Part shown: in pieces, positions 30,980-37,770 of the stretch
Numbering within the stretch: position 1 is the first letter of the stretch
Layout: each line of letters begins with the position of its first letter
NCBI GenBank assembly: GCA_021399345.1
Contig: JAAFKI010000175.1
Coordinates: 1-64,000 of the forward strand
Direction of reading: 5' to 3'
Length of the DNA: 64,000 bases
Source of the DNA: Candidatus Heimdallarchaeota archaeon
Lineage (GTDB): Archaea; Asgardarchaeota; Heimdallarchaeia; Heimdallarchaeales; Heimdallarchaeaceae
Made by a program: the position numbers and the translations under genes
Notes under the pieces: model-generated
What the model was told of the DNA's origin: nothing
The model's input: the letters and a program-made list of their open reading frames with translations, nothing else
The model's database searches: none

Positions 30980-31119
30980 TGGCGAGGCAGCCGGGATTTG
31001 AACCCGGGTCGAAGGAGTTCGGCATTCAATGCAAGACTGCAAGGAATTTGACAGTCCCCCATCATTAACCAGAGATGGTACACAACCTTTCTCTTTAGGC
31101 CAGGCTAAACTACTGCCCC
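30980..31119 (-). tRNA. tRNA-Asp(GTC) with two 31-nt introns (31065-31095 at 21/22; 31018-31048 at 37/38)
   Basis: GGGGCAG/CTGCCTC+GCCA; removing both BHB-bounded inserts gives a normal archaeal tRNA-Asp. Confidence 0.92.
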
Positions 31120-31226
31120 AAGTTTTTATCTCCCGTTTCTTTTCTTACTTTATTTTTTAAATATGTCGGTTTATTCCAAAACAGTTATCGTCTAGTAATA
31201 TTTTGAATTATCATAGTATAAAGTAA

Positions 31227-31463
31227 CTACATGAAATCTTCTAATCCTACTTGTTTCTTGGTTCTCTGAAAATCCTTCAGTTCCTTATCCTTCTGGTCAA
31301 TGAACCATTGTTTAATGAGTTTGGTTGCAGGATCAACAACAGATTTAGGTATCCAGATAGGAGTATCAACAAAACCATCAATGAGAGCAAGAAAAGCTTT
31401 CTCAGTCTCTATATCTACCTTACCTAACAAATAATCTGAATACTTACTCTGTTTCTTTTCCAT
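31227..31463 (-). CDS. Small hypothetical protein with PIP-box-like C-terminus
   Basis: 78 aa; ETEKAFL, WIPKSVV; ends QVGLEDFM. Confidence 0.65.
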   Translation of the reverse strand: MEKKQSKYSDYLLGKVDIETEKAFLALIDGFVDTPIWIPKSVVDPATKLIKQWFIDQKDKELKDFQRTKKQVGLEDFM

Positions 31464-31566
31464 GTCAAAAAGAAAAAGAGATTTGGGTTTATAATTATGA
31501 AGGTAATTGTTTATCTATCTTGTATTATCTCACTTCTCTTATTGAACAAATGTAAGAATCTACAAG

Positions 31567-32367
31567 ATGAAAATCTATTTATCAAATAAAGAAAATCATC
31601 ACAATATAATGTCAATAGATAACTCCAATATCGAAGTGATGCCTGTTAAGTATGATTTCTATAGCAAATTAATGAAAGTTATATTGGATAATGCAAACCA
31701 ATTCAGAAAAGATGCACAATTACTTAGAGAAAAACTTTCCTTTGGACATGCATACTCGTTAGCTATTTTAGGTTTTGAAGAATTGAGTAAATGTTGGTTT
31801 GTTTTTGGTCTATTCCTTGGAGAGTATGAAGCATCTGATGACATTGTTTCTGATATTACTAGTGTTCATCTGACCAAACAAGAATTAGGTTGGCAGATTA
31901 TTGCAATGATTGTTATGATGGAATGGTTTGAGGAAACCCAATTTCAAGATGAAATTCAAGAACTCTTCAAACAGTTGACAAAAGGTGTTATTAATCTTGA
32001 AACTTACACAAAGAAATATATGAAATTTGCAGAAAGGGAAAGTAACTCATCTGATCTTGCACAACGAGTTCTTAAGTTAGAAGAAGTTAGCAAAAAACTT
32101 GAAGCAGATAATAAGTATATGATGAAAAAAAAGAATGAGGGATTCTATGTTGATTTTGATTTAATAAAAAGAAAAATTACAAGTTCCCCTGATAAATTTA
32201 TTTTAGGCGACATACAATTTATTGATACATTCGATGGCTTTTATCTTTATACTGAAGAATTGTTCAAAGCAATTTTAGATAATCTCAAACGAAAAAGTAT
32301 TCAAGAAGCTTTAAAGAATACAAGAGCAATGTTTAGGCGACTCAGAAATCATTTAGTATTAAAATAG
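31567..32367 (+). CDS. AbiV-family (HEPN) protein
   Basis: NANQF..DAQLL..HAYSLAILGFEELSK, H..KQ, GFYVD; start may be ATG at 31609. Confidence 0.8.
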   Translation: MKIYLSNKENHHNIMSIDNSNIEVMPVKYDFYSKLMKVILDNANQFRKDAQLLREKLSFGHAYSLAILGFEELSKCWFVFGLFLGEYEASDDIVSDITSVHLTKQELGWQIIAMIVMMEWFEETQFQDEIQELFKQLTKGVINLETYTKKYMKFAERESNSSDLAQRVLKLEEVSKKLEADNKYMMKKKNEGFYVDFDLIKRKITSSPDKFILGDIQFIDTFDGFYLYTEELFKAILDNLKRKSIQEALKNTRAMFRRLRNHLVLK

Positions 32368-32507
32368 GTTCATAAATGAGATATTCAGTTAGTCAATCTA
32401 ATGTTTTGTTTTACTACAGGGTATTTTTGAGAAACTATTAAATACCTATTTACAGTATTTTAAGAATATTACTTGAGAGATAGCTTGAGATAAGGAGGGA
32501 AATTCAA

Positions 32508-32870
32508 ATGGGTAATAGGGAAGAACATATTTCATTAGGAATGGCAATTGGGGCACCTATTATAATTGGTATGTTGGTAGGATTTGCTGATAGTTTTGCT
32601 GCAGGTTTATGGCAAGCTCTCTTAGGATTATTTCTTTTAGCTGTTGGATCTGTTCTACCTGATTGGTTGGAACCTCCTACACATTGGAATCACAGACAAG
32701 AAAATCACTCTAAAGAAACTCTATATGGAACAGGCATCTTTTCTGCTGTTTCAATTGTTCTAGTTATTCTTCATGACTCGGCATGGATAATATTATTTGG
32801 TTTACTTTTTGGTTACTCTTTACATTTGCTTCTAGATTCTACAACTAAAATGGGATTACCAGATGAATAA
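32508..32870 (+). CDS. Membrane-bound metal-dependent hydrolase (YdjM-like)
   Basis: N-terminal His, GSVLPD, HR..HS, GYSLHLLLD. Confidence 0.85.
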   Translation: MGNREEHISLGMAIGAPIIIGMLVGFADSFAAGLWQALLGLFLLAVGSVLPDWLEPPTHWNHRQENHSKETLYGTGIFSAVSIVLVILHDSAWIILFGLLFGYSLHLLLDSTTKMGLPDE

Positions 32871-33033
32871 TAATTTAATCAAACCCATACTTTGATGATA
32901 GATAGTAAGGTAAGCACTAAAGCAATTAAAGTAAGAAAGAGTTCTTAAAAGTTGAACAAAACGCAATTTAAACCGTTTTAGTAATTAAATACTCACTAAA
33001 AACTTAAATAATTTAACACTAATTTTAAACAAT

Positions 33034-33396
33034 TTGTCTATTGGTGAGAAAAATGAAAAACAGAATTCAGATAATCAACCCTCTATTAAGAAAAGGGAAC
33101 TAACAAGGGAACAACCATTCAAACCTGATGATATTTGTAAAACCTATTGTTCTTTAAGTAATAATAAGCAAGAGTGTTCAAAAGTCAGAAAAGAAGCAAG
33201 AAATGCGTGTTCGTTACTGCTTAAAAGATACTCCGGAAATAGAATAGAACAAGCTATACTTGGGGAAACAGGTTTTTCTTTAGAAGATTTATTGAAGCAA
33301 GTTCTGAAAGAGAAAAAACTGAAAGATAATGACAAAGTAGTCCTTTGTGCACAAAGAGAATTAACTAATCAACTAATGAAAATCAAGGTAAAATGA
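33034..33396 (+). CDS. Hypothetical protein with clustered Cys
   Basis: 120-aa ORF, TTG start, AT-rich upstream region. Confidence 0.5.
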   Translation: MSIGEKNEKQNSDNQPSIKKRELTREQPFKPDDICKTYCSLSNNKQECSKVRKEARNACSLLLKRYSGNRIEQAILGETGFSLEDLLKQVLKEKKLKDNDKVVLCAQRELTNQLMKIKVK

Positions 33397-33419
33397 ATAA
33401 TTTCTAAAAACTAATACAG

Positions 33420-33639
33420 TTATGTTCTCTCCAACTTATTCAAAACACTTTTTATGCGCATAATAAAACTTTCATCAGTTTCTTTTTTGAGAGCTTCTTT
33501 TAAAAGTTCTATCGCTCTAGGATTTCCTTCAAATCCTTCAAGGGTTTCTAATGCTTCTAGTCTAACACTCTCATTTTCATCTTCAAGTGCTTTAATGAGG
33601 TGTTTAACTGCTATGGGGTCAACAAATAGTTTTAGTCAT
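33420..33639 (-). pseudogene. HEAT/PBS-lyase repeat gene remnant with 1-nt frameshift
   Basis: Minus frame reads DPIAVKHLIKALEDENESVRLEALETL..NPRAIELLKEALKKETDE; the ATG at 33639 is one base out of frame across an A4 run. Confidence 0.7.
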
Positions 33640-33714
33640 CTCAATTTTCTCTGATTTCTCTTAGTACGAATAATTATAAATTCAAAGACTGTAGGTAAAG
33701 CTTGAAACCAAACG

Positions 33715-34638
33715 ATGAAAATACTAGTGCTTAGTGATATTGGTTGGTGGAGACGTCCTCCTAAATATGATTGCAGTGATGATAGTCCTTTGTATAGAAT
33801 TCTATCTTCTTACTTAAAAGAGATAATCATGGAATTGAAGCCTTCCTTTATTTTCTTAGGAGGTGACTTGATTGATAGAGTACCAGAACCTCCAGAAGAG
33901 GTTTTTCAAGAGTTAATAGAACTGTTGTATTTCATTAATGATAAGAAAATCTATTGCTTTTTGGTTGAAGGAAACCACGATTATAAATTCTATCCGAGAA
34001 TTGTAAAGAAGATTGAGAAACTGGAATATGTAATAGATATATCAGATAAAACTATACAAATAAACAAATTCAAATTCCTTGGGATTTCGTATCAAACATC
34101 CAAAAAGCTGCCTAAATTACAAGAGCTAATAATGAATAATCCACAGAAAATTGATTTTGTGCTAGCACATGCAGAATTATCTAGAAGAGTTATGCTTTTC
34201 AAACTTAACACTAGATTCATTATTACAGGACATTTCAGATCATATTTTTATCAATTGAGAGATAAGATTATTCTAGCTACGGATGTTTTTCCATACTATT
34301 ATGCTATAGTCGATTACGATGGCATCGAAGATAAAATTGTCCTTTATTATGAGGATGAGATAAGCATTGAAGGGATTCTAAAAGATAAAAATCTTATCAC
34401 TAAAAAAGATAAGAGGAATAAGTATCAAAAAGAATATGCTGAGGATTCCAAAAGAAAGATGTCGCTTCTTATGCAAGCTGAGGAGAGGCAGGATAGCGTT
34501 TCTGATGAAGAAATGGGTCAGATTATTTATAATCTAATGAAGGATGGAATTTCGGAATATCTAATATATGATTATCTAAAATGTAGAATAAATATCTGTA
34601 TACAATGCGGAAAAGTATATCCAAACTTAAAGAGTTAG
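33715..34638 (+). CDS. Calcineurin-like metallophosphoesterase with stop-interrupted C-terminal C2H2 zinc finger
   Basis: LSDI, GGDLID, GNHD, LAH, TGH motifs; CIQCGKVYPNLKS*KEHISSH. Confidence 0.8.
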   Translation: MKILVLSDIGWWRRPPKYDCSDDSPLYRILSSYLKEIIMELKPSFIFLGGDLIDRVPEPPEEVFQELIELLYFINDKKIYCFLVEGNHDYKFYPRIVKKIEKLEYVIDISDKTIQINKFKFLGISYQTSKKLPKLQELIMNNPQKIDFVLAHAELSRRVMLFKLNTRFIITGHFRSYFYQLRDKIILATDVFPYYYAIVDYDGIEDKIVLYYEDEISIEGILKDKNLITKKDKRNKYQKEYAEDSKRKMSLLMQAEERQDSVSDEEMGQIIYNLMKDGISEYLIYDYLKCRINICIQCGKVYPNLKS

Positions 34639-35064
34639 AAGGAACACATTTCTTCTCATAAGAAACTTTAGAACGAATTAATTATTTCTTGATTGAAGTT
34701 CAAGTTCGATGTCTCTTTTTTTCCTTTCCTTTTGCATAGAACTTAAAAACCATCTTCCAGTTCATTGTTCTCTATTTAGCTCATTCCCCAATTGGTTTAT
34801 AAAGGTGAAAACCATGTTTTTAAAGAACTTTGAAGTTTTTACCACTTTTAAAATGCATTTTACAGATATATTACTGAAGCTAGCTCACTTGATATTTATT
34901 TAATCTAGATAGGTATTTTATATAACTCTTCTTCCTTGATTTGGCACAAAATTTCTGTGGTGCTTATAACATCAACACTCTTCTATAATTTAGATAGGCA
35001 AGAATTACACCCGTAGTAAACCCAAACCCGTAATTCTTCGCTTATCACCAAAAAGAAAAAGGAG

Positions 35065-35202
35065 TTGAAAAGAGAAGAAGTTGATTGTCAGGATTTCCAT
35101 TTTGAGAATCTGAAGCAATTTTACACGTAGTACTATCGGTGGTTCCTCTACAGGTTTTAAATGTTAAGACTAGAAGAGAAACCATCGATTACAACTTTTC
35201 AA
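35065..35202. ncRNA. Structured non-coding element upstream of tnpB
   Basis: TTGAAAAG/CTTTTCAA enclosing helix; inner hairpins 35085-35119 and ATCGGTGGTT/AACCATCGAT (35135-35189). Confidence 0.4.
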
Positions 35203-35225
35203 AATAGGTTTCCAAGTTTATTTCA

Positions 35226-36788
35226 ATGAAACAATTTCAGGAAGTGAAATTTATGACTATCGAAGCAAGTAATAAACAAAAACAATCAGCATCTGAAGAC
35301 AAGAATCTGGTAAAACATGGAGAAGTCAAAAGCACAACTCAAGCACCATTAGCTACATTCTATGAGGTTATACCTTTGAGAATCAAGACGGAATTAATGT
35401 CTGTTCGAGAGTGTGAAAGGTTGCGAAGAATAACCGAAAGAGATACTAGAATCATCCAGCACTACCTTAGAATCATCAAACACAATGAGGAGAAAATTCT
35501 ACGAAAAGATGGTAAAGTCAACACTTCCCTTCTGGATAATTTGACCCTAACCACTTCTTTGAACACGAAGAACAAGTTACGAACTTCCGTTCCTCACGAC
35601 TTGAAGAAGCGTTATCCCCGTTGTTCACATGATGAATTCCAAGAATGCAGAGACAAAGCTATTTGGACTTACGAGAGTTGGAAAGCACAGCAAGATGTTT
35701 CTAAAAAGGAACTGAGTAGACCTGAATTCAAGAAGAAAACTCCTCGACCCATGTTCAAAGGAAAAGAAGGCAGAGGTACTTTTCAGATACATTTCAAACT
35801 TGATAATACTGATGCTAGACTTTGGCTGGAGTTAAGGGATTCGCTTGATACAAAACGATCTGACACTCGAACCCATCAGAGACTATGGCTACCATTAGCT
35901 TACTCACCTTACCATGAAAAGAGGTTGAAACTAGAGAACATCAAGATGGTGGAACTAGTATATAAATCCAAAGAACAGCAATGGTGGGCACATTTTACCC
36001 AACATATTTCTGTCCCAAGTTATCAATCCACTCTTTCACCTGCAGTGTTAGGAGTAGATCTGGGAATAAAGAAAACAGCTGTTGCTGTGTTACTTAATCC
36101 TACAGGTAAAGTAATCATGGATGAAATCCGCTTTATCGTTGATAAGGAGAGGCAGTCAAAAATATGGCAACTTAGTAGACAGATCAAAGAAACTCAGAGG
36201 AAGTTGAATAAAAGTCTCAACAACCGTCAGCATACTAAACAGCTTAACAATACACTCTTCCGTCTACGTAGAAGACGACGTTCTATTACAGAACAAGAAC
36301 TAGGATTTGCAGTTAACCAATTGGTTGATTTCATCCTTCAGTTGAAGAAGAGGTATAATCTGTTTGTGTCTGTTGGCTATCCTAAGTATATCCAGAGACG
36401 TCAACCTCGAGGTAGTGGAAACAAATCCTTACGTAAGCAAGTGCATAAGTGGTGTTATCGCTACTTTATCATTAAGCTGAGAAACCAGCTAGCTAAGTAT
36501 GGATTTGAACCGTATCGAGTGGTAGCTGTTAATGAAAGTTGGACCTCTAAAAGATGTTCCAGATGTAATTCTACAAACACTACCCGTACAGGACAAGGAC
36601 AGTTCAATTGCCATGATTACAACTACGAACTAGATGCCGACTTGAACGGAGCAAAAAACATAGGGAAGAGGTTGATTAGGTATGCGTTAAAACCAAACTT
36701 CAGCAGTATCAAAGATCTACTGACAGAAGAATGCTATCCTATACAACACTACAAGTGTTTCCTGCCCTTAGGTCAATGGCTTAAGTGA
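35226..36788 (+). CDS. tnpB: TnpB-family RNA-guided nuclease with rearranged RuvC-II
   Basis: GVDLG (D278), VSVGYP (G384), VNESWTSKRCSRC (E437), DADLNGAKNI (D472). Confidence 0.9.
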   Translation: MKQFQEVKFMTIEASNKQKQSASEDKNLVKHGEVKSTTQAPLATFYEVIPLRIKTELMSVRECERLRRITERDTRIIQHYLRIIKHNEEKILRKDGKVNTSLLDNLTLTTSLNTKNKLRTSVPHDLKKRYPRCSHDEFQECRDKAIWTYESWKAQQDVSKKELSRPEFKKKTPRPMFKGKEGRGTFQIHFKLDNTDARLWLELRDSLDTKRSDTRTHQRLWLPLAYSPYHEKRLKLENIKMVELVYKSKEQQWWAHFTQHISVPSYQSTLSPAVLGVDLGIKKTAVAVLLNPTGKVIMDEIRFIVDKERQSKIWQLSRQIKETQRKLNKSLNNRQHTKQLNNTLFRLRRRRRSITEQELGFAVNQLVDFILQLKKRYNLFVSVGYPKYIQRRQPRGSGNKSLRKQVHKWCYRYFIIKLRNQLAKYGFEPYRVVAVNESWTSKRCSRCNSTNTTRTGQGQFNCHDYNYELDADLNGAKNIGKRLIRYALKPNFSSIKDLLTEECYPIQHYKCFLPLGQWLK

Positions 36789-37124
36789 TTCTGCAAAGAA
36801 TACATCGTTTAGTAAAATTCGGTGTGCGAGGTCAAGAATCCGTCATCTCACTAATTAGACTGATTCGATAATGAGTGACCTTAATCAGGAGATGATTCCT
36901 TTGAACAGCTTGCTGTTCCAGAGACTGGTACTGTATTTTATGAGAGGTTTTTCTTTTCATTACTTACAGTTTCGTACGACGACAATCCATGCCACGCCAG
37001 TTTAGGAGGAGTTTTGAAAGAATCTGCTTGAAAACTTAGGTTTTTGTGTAGAGACTAACTCATCATAGGCCAGGCTTAACTACAAATTAAGTCTGACTAC
37101 AACCTCTCCCTCCTTTTTTCTTTT
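36787..37124 (+). ncRNA. Candidate omega/reRNA scaffold downstream of tnpB
   Basis: Consecutive helices GATTCT/AGAATC, TCATCTC/GAGATGA, GAACAG-CTTG-CTGTTC, GACTGG/CCAGTT, ACTGTA/TACAGT, AGGAGG/CCTCCT, CAGGCTTAA/TTAAGTCTG, then a T tract. Confidence 0.6.
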
Positions 37125-37197
37125 ACACTTGTCGTTTAGTATAACGAGAAACTCAATAGAACATCAACTAACATAGATAAAAAAGAAATTCAATGTT

Positions 37198-37770
37198 TTA
37201 ATCTAACCCAAATTCTACTCTCTTTCGTTCTACATCTTTCATTAGTTCCTGCGCAAAGGTTCTGAATGCATCCTCTACTTTTTCACCTGTTTTTGCTGAT
37301 GTAATAAAGAAAGAATCTTTTGGTATATTTAACTCTTGAATAATGGTATCAATATTTTCTTGTGAAACAGCAATTTGTTCATTTAAATCTGCTTTGTTTC
37401 CTATAAGGAAGTATATTGCATCTTCTTCAACACTCTCTAAACCTTTCTTCCATGCTTTCAAAGAACTTAAAGTGTTATTTCTTGTGAGATCATAAACTAA
37501 AAAACACCCTCTTGCTCCTCGATAGAATTTTTCTCTAACTGATGCAAATCGTTCTTGTCCGCCTATATCACTTATTAGAAACAACACTTCATCATTTTCA
37601 ACAAATAATTGTTTGCTTAGAATGTCTACTCCTATTGTCATAAGATATGATGCTTGGAATCGGTTGTGTACAAATCTAGTAATAAGAGAGCTTTTACCTA
37701 CTCCTGGGTCTCCTAGTAGAACTATTTTGAAAATATACTTCTTGCCTTGCCCCTCGTCTTCAGTCATCAT
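37198..37770 (-). CDS. Rab-like small GTPase (eukaryotic signature protein)
   Basis: FKIVLLGDPGVGKSS, TIGVD, DIGGQERF, YRGA, NKAD, TSAKTG; no C-terminal Cys. Confidence 0.93.
   Translation of the reverse strand: MMTEDEGQGKKYIFKIVLLGDPGVGKSSLITRFVHNRFQASYLMTIGVDILSKQLFVENDEVLFLISDIGGQERFASVREKFYRGARGCFLVYDLTRNNTLSSLKAWKKGLESVEEDAIYFLIGNKADLNEQIAVSQENIDTIIQELNIPKDSFFITSAKTGEKVEDAFRTFAQELMKDVERKRVEFGLD

Follow-up and report, generated by a model that had tools for sequence, protein, structure and literature searches.

Among the genes of a 64,000-nucleotide stretch of Candidatus Heimdallarchaeota archaeon (GenBank assembly GCA_021399345.1, contig JAAFKI010000175.1, positions 1 to 64,000 of the forward strand; this whole stretch is called here the window), one encodes a large TnpB, which an earlier reading of the letters alone (below, the sequence-only reading) had described as a solo RNA-guided nuclease with Fanzor-type arrangement of the catalytic site. 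Comparison with sister genomes places this gene in a wider context. Together with a non-coding leader, a candidate omegaRNA scaffold, and a terminal guide cassette (Table 1), tnpB composes a module that is best explained as the right-hand end of a Heimdallarchaeial island family having no recognisable transposase or integrase. The designation "solo" therefore stands in that no transposase adjoins the gene and falls in that tnpB belongs to the terminal module of a 6-kb island. Borders of this insertion are defined by five sister contigs (G018:C301, G009:C182, G013:C157, G024:C28, and G006:C152), which are 93-97% identical to the window on both sides and lack the island. Homology with sister genomes resumes at ~37118, and the empty-site allele found in public run X2 has its loose end at 37118; on the opposite side, the left 60 nt of the island repeat, in diverged form, the native sequence lying upstream of the bordering tRNA gene. 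A 2.1-kb insertion sequence (IS) at 34937-37063 was considered as the unit of insertion and rejected, since sister genomes lack the whole 6 kb.

The evidence relating the nuclease module to the place of integration comes from the short cassette that follows the scaffold. In the window it coincides at 20 of 21 positions with bases 7-27 of tRNA-Asp, the gene of which stands at the left border of the island. Intron-less tRNA-Asp genes of sister genomes contain the matching sequence in contiguous form with CCA directly before it; in the window's own gene it is split after base 4 by a D-arm intron, the candidate target-adjacent motif (TAM) CCA being located at 31059-31061 (plus strand), target bases 1-4 (TCAT) at 31062-31065, and bases 5-21 at 31097-31113. 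Three further copies possess cassettes with identifiable targets. The 20-nt cassette of G013:C80 matches at 19 of 20 positions the host DNA that resumes past a 27-nt T-rich piece, the target being the last codons of an aIF5B-like gene, and the empty sites in four genomes read ACCA followed by the target. For G013:C72, the cassette (38-46 nt) matches empty sites in at least 10 genomes and corresponds to the first 13 codons of a 512-aa gene, host DNA resuming 131 nt later from target position 32; TCCA precedes this target in four of the five empty sites printed and ACTA in the fifth. Finally, the cassette of G013:C65 is identical over 24 of 24 positions to a TCCA-flanked site in G001:C14, another genome of the genus. 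A tRNA-like stretch beside the latter site was not accepted as tRNA, being unrecognised by Rfam. Hence 5'-CCA stands before the guide-matched host site at four independent loci out of four, the scaffold itself ending with TCA, and, with the CCA frequency of 0.012 in the host genome, such coincidence is expected by chance with probability of ~2e-8. In silico, CCA may be regarded as a candidate TAM.

Upstream of the cassette, ~275 nt after the tnpB stop codon are conserved in 18 copies and finish with a near-invariant TAACTCA and then T. The sequence becomes hypervariable past this terminal T, and the position of the transition is identical in all 18 copies. The consensus fold of the putative scaffold comprises 35 pairs (97.3% of cells of the 18-copy alignment are paired), with compensatory change at 12 of them compared to 4.1 +/- 1.4 in shuffles (0/500) and 1-3 in slid controls; the 3' end ACUCAU (together with T37063) pairs with AUGAGU at 36872-36877. 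No family of Rfam matches this 3' RNA. The loop of the hairpin at 36903-36918 (GAACAG...CTGTTC) measures 4 nt in the window and G001:C3 and 20-26 nt in most copies; this stem is missing in four copies, which characterises it as dispensable and variable. Downstream of the scaffold end, within no more than 80 nt, a C-rich and then oligo-T tract occurs in 13 of the 18 copies compared to 1.4% of random genome windows, and this tract is probably a terminator. Between the variable part and the T tract, the window and the C64 paralogue have a common short segment (AAGTCTGACT...), and in both G013:C80 and G013:C72 the cassette together with the oligo-T segment lies inside the inserted block. The scaffold is followed by a single cassette, no CRISPR repeat array being detected within 32900-37300, and inverted terminal repeats joining both ends of the TnpB module were not found.

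Configuration of the left junctions suggests what could happen to the targeted gene after integration. The tRNA-Asp gene of the window contains two introns, the canonical one of 33 nt and the D-arm one of ~31 nt, due to which ARAGORN misses it, and the orthologue of a sister genome having no introns scores 38 bits with RF00005. The D-arm intron is polymorphic in the genus (present in G000, G024, and G006; absent in G018, G009, and G013) and may either predate the island or be a scar of it. In the window, the tRNA 5' half adjoins the island and is succeeded by the diverged copy of the native upstream region, as expected if a new 5' half had come with the island and the junction is now treated as an intron. 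In the C72 island, the left junction (contig C84) retains CCA, while the target is rewritten at positions 9-19 with a near-identical N-terminus still encoded (MSLKFDSFRQPVYG in place of MSLRFDSYRSPVYG in the native gene). From the left junctions that are visible we infer that the cut gene end is replaced by a guide-resistant copy brought by the island, either an intron-bearing tRNA half or a recoded N-terminus. The same route of intron gain was proposed for tRNA-Thr of Caldiarchaeum (Sugahara et al., 2012; PMC3293823), where the tRNA gene with an extra intron is located on one side of a mobile element and an intron-free 5' fragment on the other. The Caldiarchaeum element encodes a recombinase and no TnpB, whereas in the window a tRNA fragment occupies the position of the omegaRNA guide.

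Recurrence of the same gene order at different sites indicates that the island is not a solitary case. DNA homology common to nine related copies extends from ~34938 to 37062, and in almost every copy the 3' end of a HerA/DUF87-type ATPase gene, intact or as a remnant, lies upstream of the TnpB block. Full-length ATPases of related islands (551-907 aa; Pfam PF01935) end at or just before the TnpB module, which in copies L015, L017, L016, and L187 always comes after the stop codon of the ATPase gene. In the window, a degenerate remnant of the last ATPase codons is retained at 34921-34948, ahead of the leader, and contigs of public runs break at 34921 and 34938. The ~290-nt leader is as strongly conserved across copies as the gene itself and may act as a promoter, a leader, or a second RNA. 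The island ATPases (L015:5711-8128, L017:4083-6761, L016:10899-12554, and L187:326-3049) have in common a ~100-aa C-terminal domain, unmatched in Pfam, in which four cysteines are invariant; membrane segments occur at the N-terminus of some of them. Near the left end, the 78-aa ORF (open reading frame) has a counterpart, 81% identical in DNA, in the G013:C84/C72 island 550 nt in from its left junction and is also found in L015, L019, and L020; since the same ORF accompanies the recoded C72/C84 junction, the islands represent one family with one layout.

Searches for the machinery able to move such islands yielded little. As the sequence-only reading had remarked, no Y1 or serine transposase stands beside tnpB, the start codon of which lies only ~290 nt from the conserved left boundary, and neither Y1 nor serine TnpA occurs beside the distant family members examined. 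The host genome (88.6% complete) contains no match to the Y1 transposase family, and no family match of Cas1 was obtained either in this genome or in the neighbourhoods of the family members examined. Three serine recombinases of the host genome are all on other contigs, and, within the limits set by gaps in assembly and by ORFs without annotation, a search of the 6-kb island ORFs and of ~16 kb of the G013 island found no tyrosine or serine recombinase. The host genome has three copies of the family (100%, 82%, and 44% identity) among 21 matches to the TNB domain in total. Besides ~14 ordinary copies of 410-450 aa, four further TNB-domain ORFs of ~645 aa (G000:C89:7023-9116, G000:C88:52107-52265, and two on C129 and C4) constitute a third, larger TnpB type in the genome, one of these ORFs being 1.8 kb from a serine recombinase fragment, which is an IS607-like arrangement. 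Many short tnpB fragments are scattered genus-wide, and the family is partly decaying.

The protein itself is a divergent member of TnpB, as judged from its profile matches: the TNB domain PF07282 (Cas12f1-like) scores 47.9 bits compared to the cut-off of 26.3 (E 1.5e-12), OrfB_IS605 PF01385 gives 18.7 bits compared to 30.5, and NCBIfam guided_TnpB NF040570 gives 89.1 bits compared to 100 (E 3.4e-25 across residues 131-482). Translation probably starts at M10 (position 35253) resulting in 511 aa, as most homologues begin at the equivalent residue. The protein, the length of which in excess of typical TnpBs was also pointed out in the sequence-only reading, has ~100 extra N-terminal residues and a conserved C-terminal tail. 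Catalytic residues are located as that reading described them: D278 in GVDLG of RuvC-I and D472 in DADLNGA of RuvC-III; G384 in VSVGYP, which occupies the usual position of RuvC-II Glu and aligns with the catalytic Glu (FEEL) of canonical haloarchaeal TnpBs; and E437 in VNESWTSKRC, 53 residues past G384, aligning with Pro (DPAYTS) of the same haloarchaeal proteins, in which this Pro precedes the Y-T-S lead-in of the zinc finger. Six residues lie between E437 and C444, and the zinc-finger ligands in this assembly are C444, C447, C462, and Y465. In the alignment of 97 sequences, Gly occupies the 384 position in 85 of the 86 family members (Ser in one) and Glu the 437 position in all 86, whereas the 11 canonical outgroups have Glu at 384 and Pro, Ser, or Ala at 437, so that the Gly/Glu pair covaries perfectly between clades; D278, D472, C444, C447, and C462 are invariant in all 97.

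In the AlphaFold model (pLDDT, predicted local distance difference test, 88.2; pTM, predicted template modelling score, 0.79), G384 closes strand 378-385 (beta4) and E437 comes directly after strand 432-436 (beta5). The shift of Glu from beta4 to beta5 has already been described for RuvC-II rearranged TnpBs (PMC10691335), and from the model we infer that E437 would be the third member of the triad beside D278 and D472. Top Foldseek matches of the model are complexes of Cas12f and TnpB, with AsCas12f at E 2.5e-16 and template modelling (TM) score by target of 0.63-0.66, ISDra2 TnpB at TM of 0.62, and Fanzor2 at rank 22. The pairwise ratio of non-synonymous to synonymous substitution rates (dN/dS) of ~0.2 among five tnpB copies corresponds to purifying selection, and the nuclease is probably active.

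The layout of the catalytic site was described in three papers of 2023. Altae-Tran et al. (2023; PMC10691335) called it RuvC-II rearranged (RIIr), the largest such group having Gly in place of Glu and some branches being almost confined to archaea, and Jiang et al. (2023; PMC10530073) called it TnpB2 and reported an archaeal example cleaving DNA, as well as a Fanzor in which mutation of the alternative Glu abolishes cleavage. By its motifs, the window TnpB is a member of this Ealt/RIIr/TnpB2 class of the "alternative glutamate, D-hydrophobic-G" kind. An exhaustive profile search returned 139 cluster representatives at E of 1e-30 or lower, and the Gly/Glu pair is present in nearly all of the best 150 cluster representatives including proteins of 350-450 aa. 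Full-length relatives were found solely in Asgard archaea (Heimdall, Thor, Hod, and Promethearchaeati), and no close relatives were found in IMG/VR, the matches there being distant and mostly canonical TnpBs. One Heimdall member of 736 aa (L132:7001-9211, P0134) has an N-terminal extension with faint winged-helix (MarR/TrmB) matches and is surrounded by many small unannotated ORFs with an RNase H-like gene adjoining. Another one, 37% identical, from the complete genome of Ca. Heimdallarchaeum aukensis (L106:6001-7455), stands alone between the gene of ribosomal protein S12 and the rpoD/L18/L13/S9 cluster.

Taken together, these data make us lean, if only modestly, to the idea that the TnpB module serves as an RNA-guided homing or retention module of an integrase-less island. 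According to this proposal, the TnpB-omegaRNA complex would cut CCA-flanked unoccupied or wild-type integration sites, here the D-arm of tRNA-Asp, and repair following the cut would copy or keep the island, which implies homing or retention, respectively. A replacement for the damaged gene end, resistant to the guide, would come with the island, and the occupied chromosome would thereby escape further cutting; in the window such a replacement could be the tRNA 5' half with the junction read as an intron, and at the other locus the recoded N-terminus. A more general formulation, in which TnpB-omegaRNA is the site-selecting and self-preserving device of integrase-less Asgard islands using a built-in guide, CCA-flanked sites (tRNA-Asp, first or last codons of housekeeping genes), repair, and guide-resistant ends, can be put forward only tentatively from the loci compared, and we do not hold it to be the probable one.

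A number of observations weigh against the proposal. It leaves the renewal of the guide cassette unexplained; for the cassette of the C64 paralogue no convincing match was obtained in 25 genomes, nor was an empty site for this paralogue found. The left end of the window island is ambiguous, ~45 nt of native sequence are missing at its right junction, and 118 nt are missing on the left of the G013:C80/C88 island, and therefore the insertions were not clean. The D-arm intron occurs also in two island-free genomes (G024 and G006). A single in-frame TAA or TAG interrupts 6 of ~18 near-full-length copies of sister genomes, that of G013:C72 included. Residue 465, the fourth zinc ligand, is Tyr in this assembly, where the zinc finger is therefore not intact, and Cys in 96 of the 97 relatives; because all contigs of two public runs covering base 36619 have G (encoding Cys465) instead of A, Tyr465 reflects either an error of assembly or a variant that is private or minor. 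Finally, all genomes compared are metagenome bins, in which four guide-target loci are resolved.

Two other explanations of the same locus should be considered along with the homing or retention proposal. The module might be an ordinary non-autonomous relic of IS200/IS605 type, the 21 nt being a flank preserved from old insertion into tRNA-Asp and the rest of the island being unrelated neighbouring DNA. Classical TnpB elements indeed take the guide from DNA flanking their right end, no transposase adjoins tnpB, copies are diverged (61-84% identity) with stop codons in several of them, and the internal position of the cassette in the window island is not provable since native sequence there is also T-rich. 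We nevertheless find this explanation unlikely: the inserted block of G013:C80 and C72 includes the cassette plus 27-131 nt more, with host DNA only afterwards, a conserved segment downstream of the variable cassette is common to the window and C64 copies, the order of 78-aa ORF, ATPase, and TnpB is repeated at different integration sites, sister genomes are devoid of the whole 6 kb rather than of a 2.1-kb element, and no tRNA forms the left side of the 2.1-kb module. Alternatively, the island might be a classical integrase-driven element targeting tRNA genes or gene ends and bringing a replacement end, with TnpB as a passenger beside the attachment site and the repeats as att sites. Such elements characteristically integrate into tRNA genes, bring a replacement for the displaced gene end, and are flanked by direct repeats; the islands are incompletely assembled with several large ORFs lacking Pfam matches, and the recombinase-encoding element of Caldiarchaeum flanked by a tRNA with an extra intron and a stray 5' fragment provides a close parallel (PMC3293823). 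Against it stand the lack of tyrosine or serine recombinase in the 6-kb island or the ~16 kb of the G013 island, the start of the repeated host sequence exactly one base past the scaffold end at four unrelated loci, the CCA ahead of it, which is a TAM-like rule and no property of att sites, and the cassette being not contiguous with the host flank; we judge such an origin quite unlikely.

The idea of a distinct Asgard nuclease family specifically related to eukaryotic Fanzors or convergent with them, put forward in the sequence-only reading, appears very improbable. It is favoured by the alternative Glu six residues before the zinc finger in both, by the Asgard host, by the size exceeding that of typical TnpBs, and by the family profile scoring mimivirus Fanzor2 at 67 bits compared to 38 bits for ISDra2 TnpB. 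The overall RuvC plus zinc-finger architecture is common to the window TnpB and Fanzor1/Fanzor2. Cas12f (101, 90, and 85 bits) and a TnpB (73 bits), however, outscore Fanzor2, Fanzor1 structures were not reached by the profile at E of 1 or lower, and phmmer search with residues 372-442 against PDB for alignment of E437 with the Fanzor2 Glu gave no relevant match. The Fanzor fingerprint consists of the alternative Glu plus D-P-G in RuvC-I, D-hydrophobic-G being characteristic of most prokaryotic Ealt proteins (Yoon et al., 2023; PMC10711439). RuvC-I of the window TnpB family reads D-L-G (D278 and G280 invariant, L279 in at least 90% of members), and the family therefore falls outside this fingerprint. 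Published trees derive Fanzors from cyanobacterial IS607 "pro-Fanzors" (PMC10711439). The host here is Heimdallarchaeial with no serine recombinase nearby; Fanzors differ from the window protein by D-P-G, by hosts that are eukaryotes or giant viruses, by introns and nuclear localisation signals, and by eukaryotic transposase partners. The relocated Glu does not serve as a marker of Fanzors, as the same layout, published as Ealt/RIIr/TnpB2, is common to hundreds of prokaryotic clusters and to nearly all of the nearest 150 representatives. The shifted catalytic Glu is thus already known and gives no link between Asgard archaea and Fanzors. What persists of the initial suggestion of an RNA-guided nuclease lineage in eukaryote-related archaea is a TnpB-family candidate with full-length kin found solely in Asgard archaea; the Fanzor tie is not supported.

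Several characterised systems resemble the homing or retention module in part. RuvC-II-rearranged TnpBs (PMC10711439; TnpB2, e.g., Thermoplasma volcanium TvTnpB, PMC10530073; RIIr, PMC10691335) have the same Gly, Glu six residues before the zinc finger, D-L-G, and TnpB/Cas12f fold, with a structured RNA likewise encoded 3' of the gene, whereas the window TnpB is ~100 residues longer N-terminally, has the conserved C-terminal tail, and has full-length kin in Asgard archaea only. TvTnpB has an IS605 TnpA; the window TnpB exists without Y1 TnpA, and its guide is a cassette between conserved segments. Cas1-associated TnpBs of Asgard archaea (Cas1H-Asgard-1/-2; Altae-Tran et al., 2023) share the host group and a hypervariable stretch downstream, which starts past a conserved T and precedes a conserved motif. 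The motif published for them, GTTCACTCA, was not found downstream of the window tnpB, and GTCTGACTAC in two copies here is loosely similar only. They also differ by association with Cas1, which was not found in the host genome (88.6% complete) or in the neighbourhoods of family members mentioned above. Canonical TnpB of IS200/IS605 elements (e.g., ISDra2) reportedly performs homing with a guide matching the element's own site, as Meers et al. are said to have found in 2023. In canonical TnpB systems TAM is on the far side of the insertion, so that occupied sites are immune. ISDra2-type TnpB resembles the window one in being an RNA-guided nuclease, in closing a mobile element on the right, and in having a guide for the element's own site, and differs by the canonical Glu, an element of ~1.5-2 kb, Y1 TnpA, and a guide transcribed from the flank; such elements are without cargo or a replacement gene end. 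CRISPR-associated transposons (type V-K with Cas12k, a descendant of TnpB) use a dedicated homing guide for the chromosomal attachment site, often beside a tRNA gene. Their effector is nuclease-dead and works with Tn7-type transposase proteins, whereas in the window catalytic residues are kept and no transposase is seen.

The remaining features of the locus are collected in Table 1. Besides the genes listed there, the island cargo includes a YdjM-like membrane protein, and the relative island of G013 (~16 kb) encodes HNH nucleases (L187:5709-6206) and a type ISP restriction-modification enzyme (L187:7525-10776). The cargo is of defence type, being represented by AbiV HEPN in the window and by the type ISP enzyme with HNH nucleases in the G013 relative.

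Table 1. Features of the island and its left border in the window (positions are those of the 64,000-nt stretch)
Feature	Position	Strand	Basis
tRNA-Asp(GUC) gene with two introns	30983..31119	-	Rfam RF00005, 31.4 bits (gathering 29)
Non-canonical D-arm intron, ~31 nt	31066..31096	-	Comparison with sister loci L116, L110-L113
Genomic island, ~6 kb	31120..37117		BLASTN of the window against sister-genome contigs
78-aa ORF	31227..31463	-	Conserved near the left end of related islands
AbiV-type HEPN protein	31567..32367	+	Pfam PF18728, E 1.3e-16
HerA/DUF87-type ATPase, C-terminal fragment, 120 aa	33034..33396	+	tblastn, tblastx, alignment
Calcineurin-like metallophosphoesterase	33715..34638	+	Pfam PF00149, E 3.2e-12
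Conserved non-coding leader of the TnpB module	34938..35225	+	BLASTN and MAFFT against nine copies
tnpB gene	35226..36788	+	520 aa from the first ATG, frame open
Candidate omegaRNA scaffold	36789..37062	+	18-copy alignment, covariation
Guide cassette (putative)	37063..37083	+	Match to the tRNA-Asp gene
Post-guide segment (AAGTCTGACT...) and oligo-T tract	37084..37125	+	Comparison with the C64 paralogue

What appears to be new here, as far as it can be read from the compared genomes, is the guide cassette at the end of the module, the rule of CCA before its targets, the island surrounding tnpB, and the replacement ends resistant to the guide. TnpB is usually viewed as a helper of small IS elements with a guide read from the flank, and in the present case guide and nuclease would form one self-contained cassette terminating multi-gene islands. 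Provided the nuclease is active, the homing guides of CRISPR-associated transposons would have in it a nuclease-based counterpart, the TAM and guide needed to test a compact archaeal editor would already be at hand, and two old ideas, that mobile elements create tRNA introns and that introns shield tRNA genes, would become testable. If the proposed scheme is true, these islands would represent a natural RNA-guided homing element resembling a gene drive and a concrete route to non-canonical archaeal tRNA introns, which would protect against RNA-guided nucleases.

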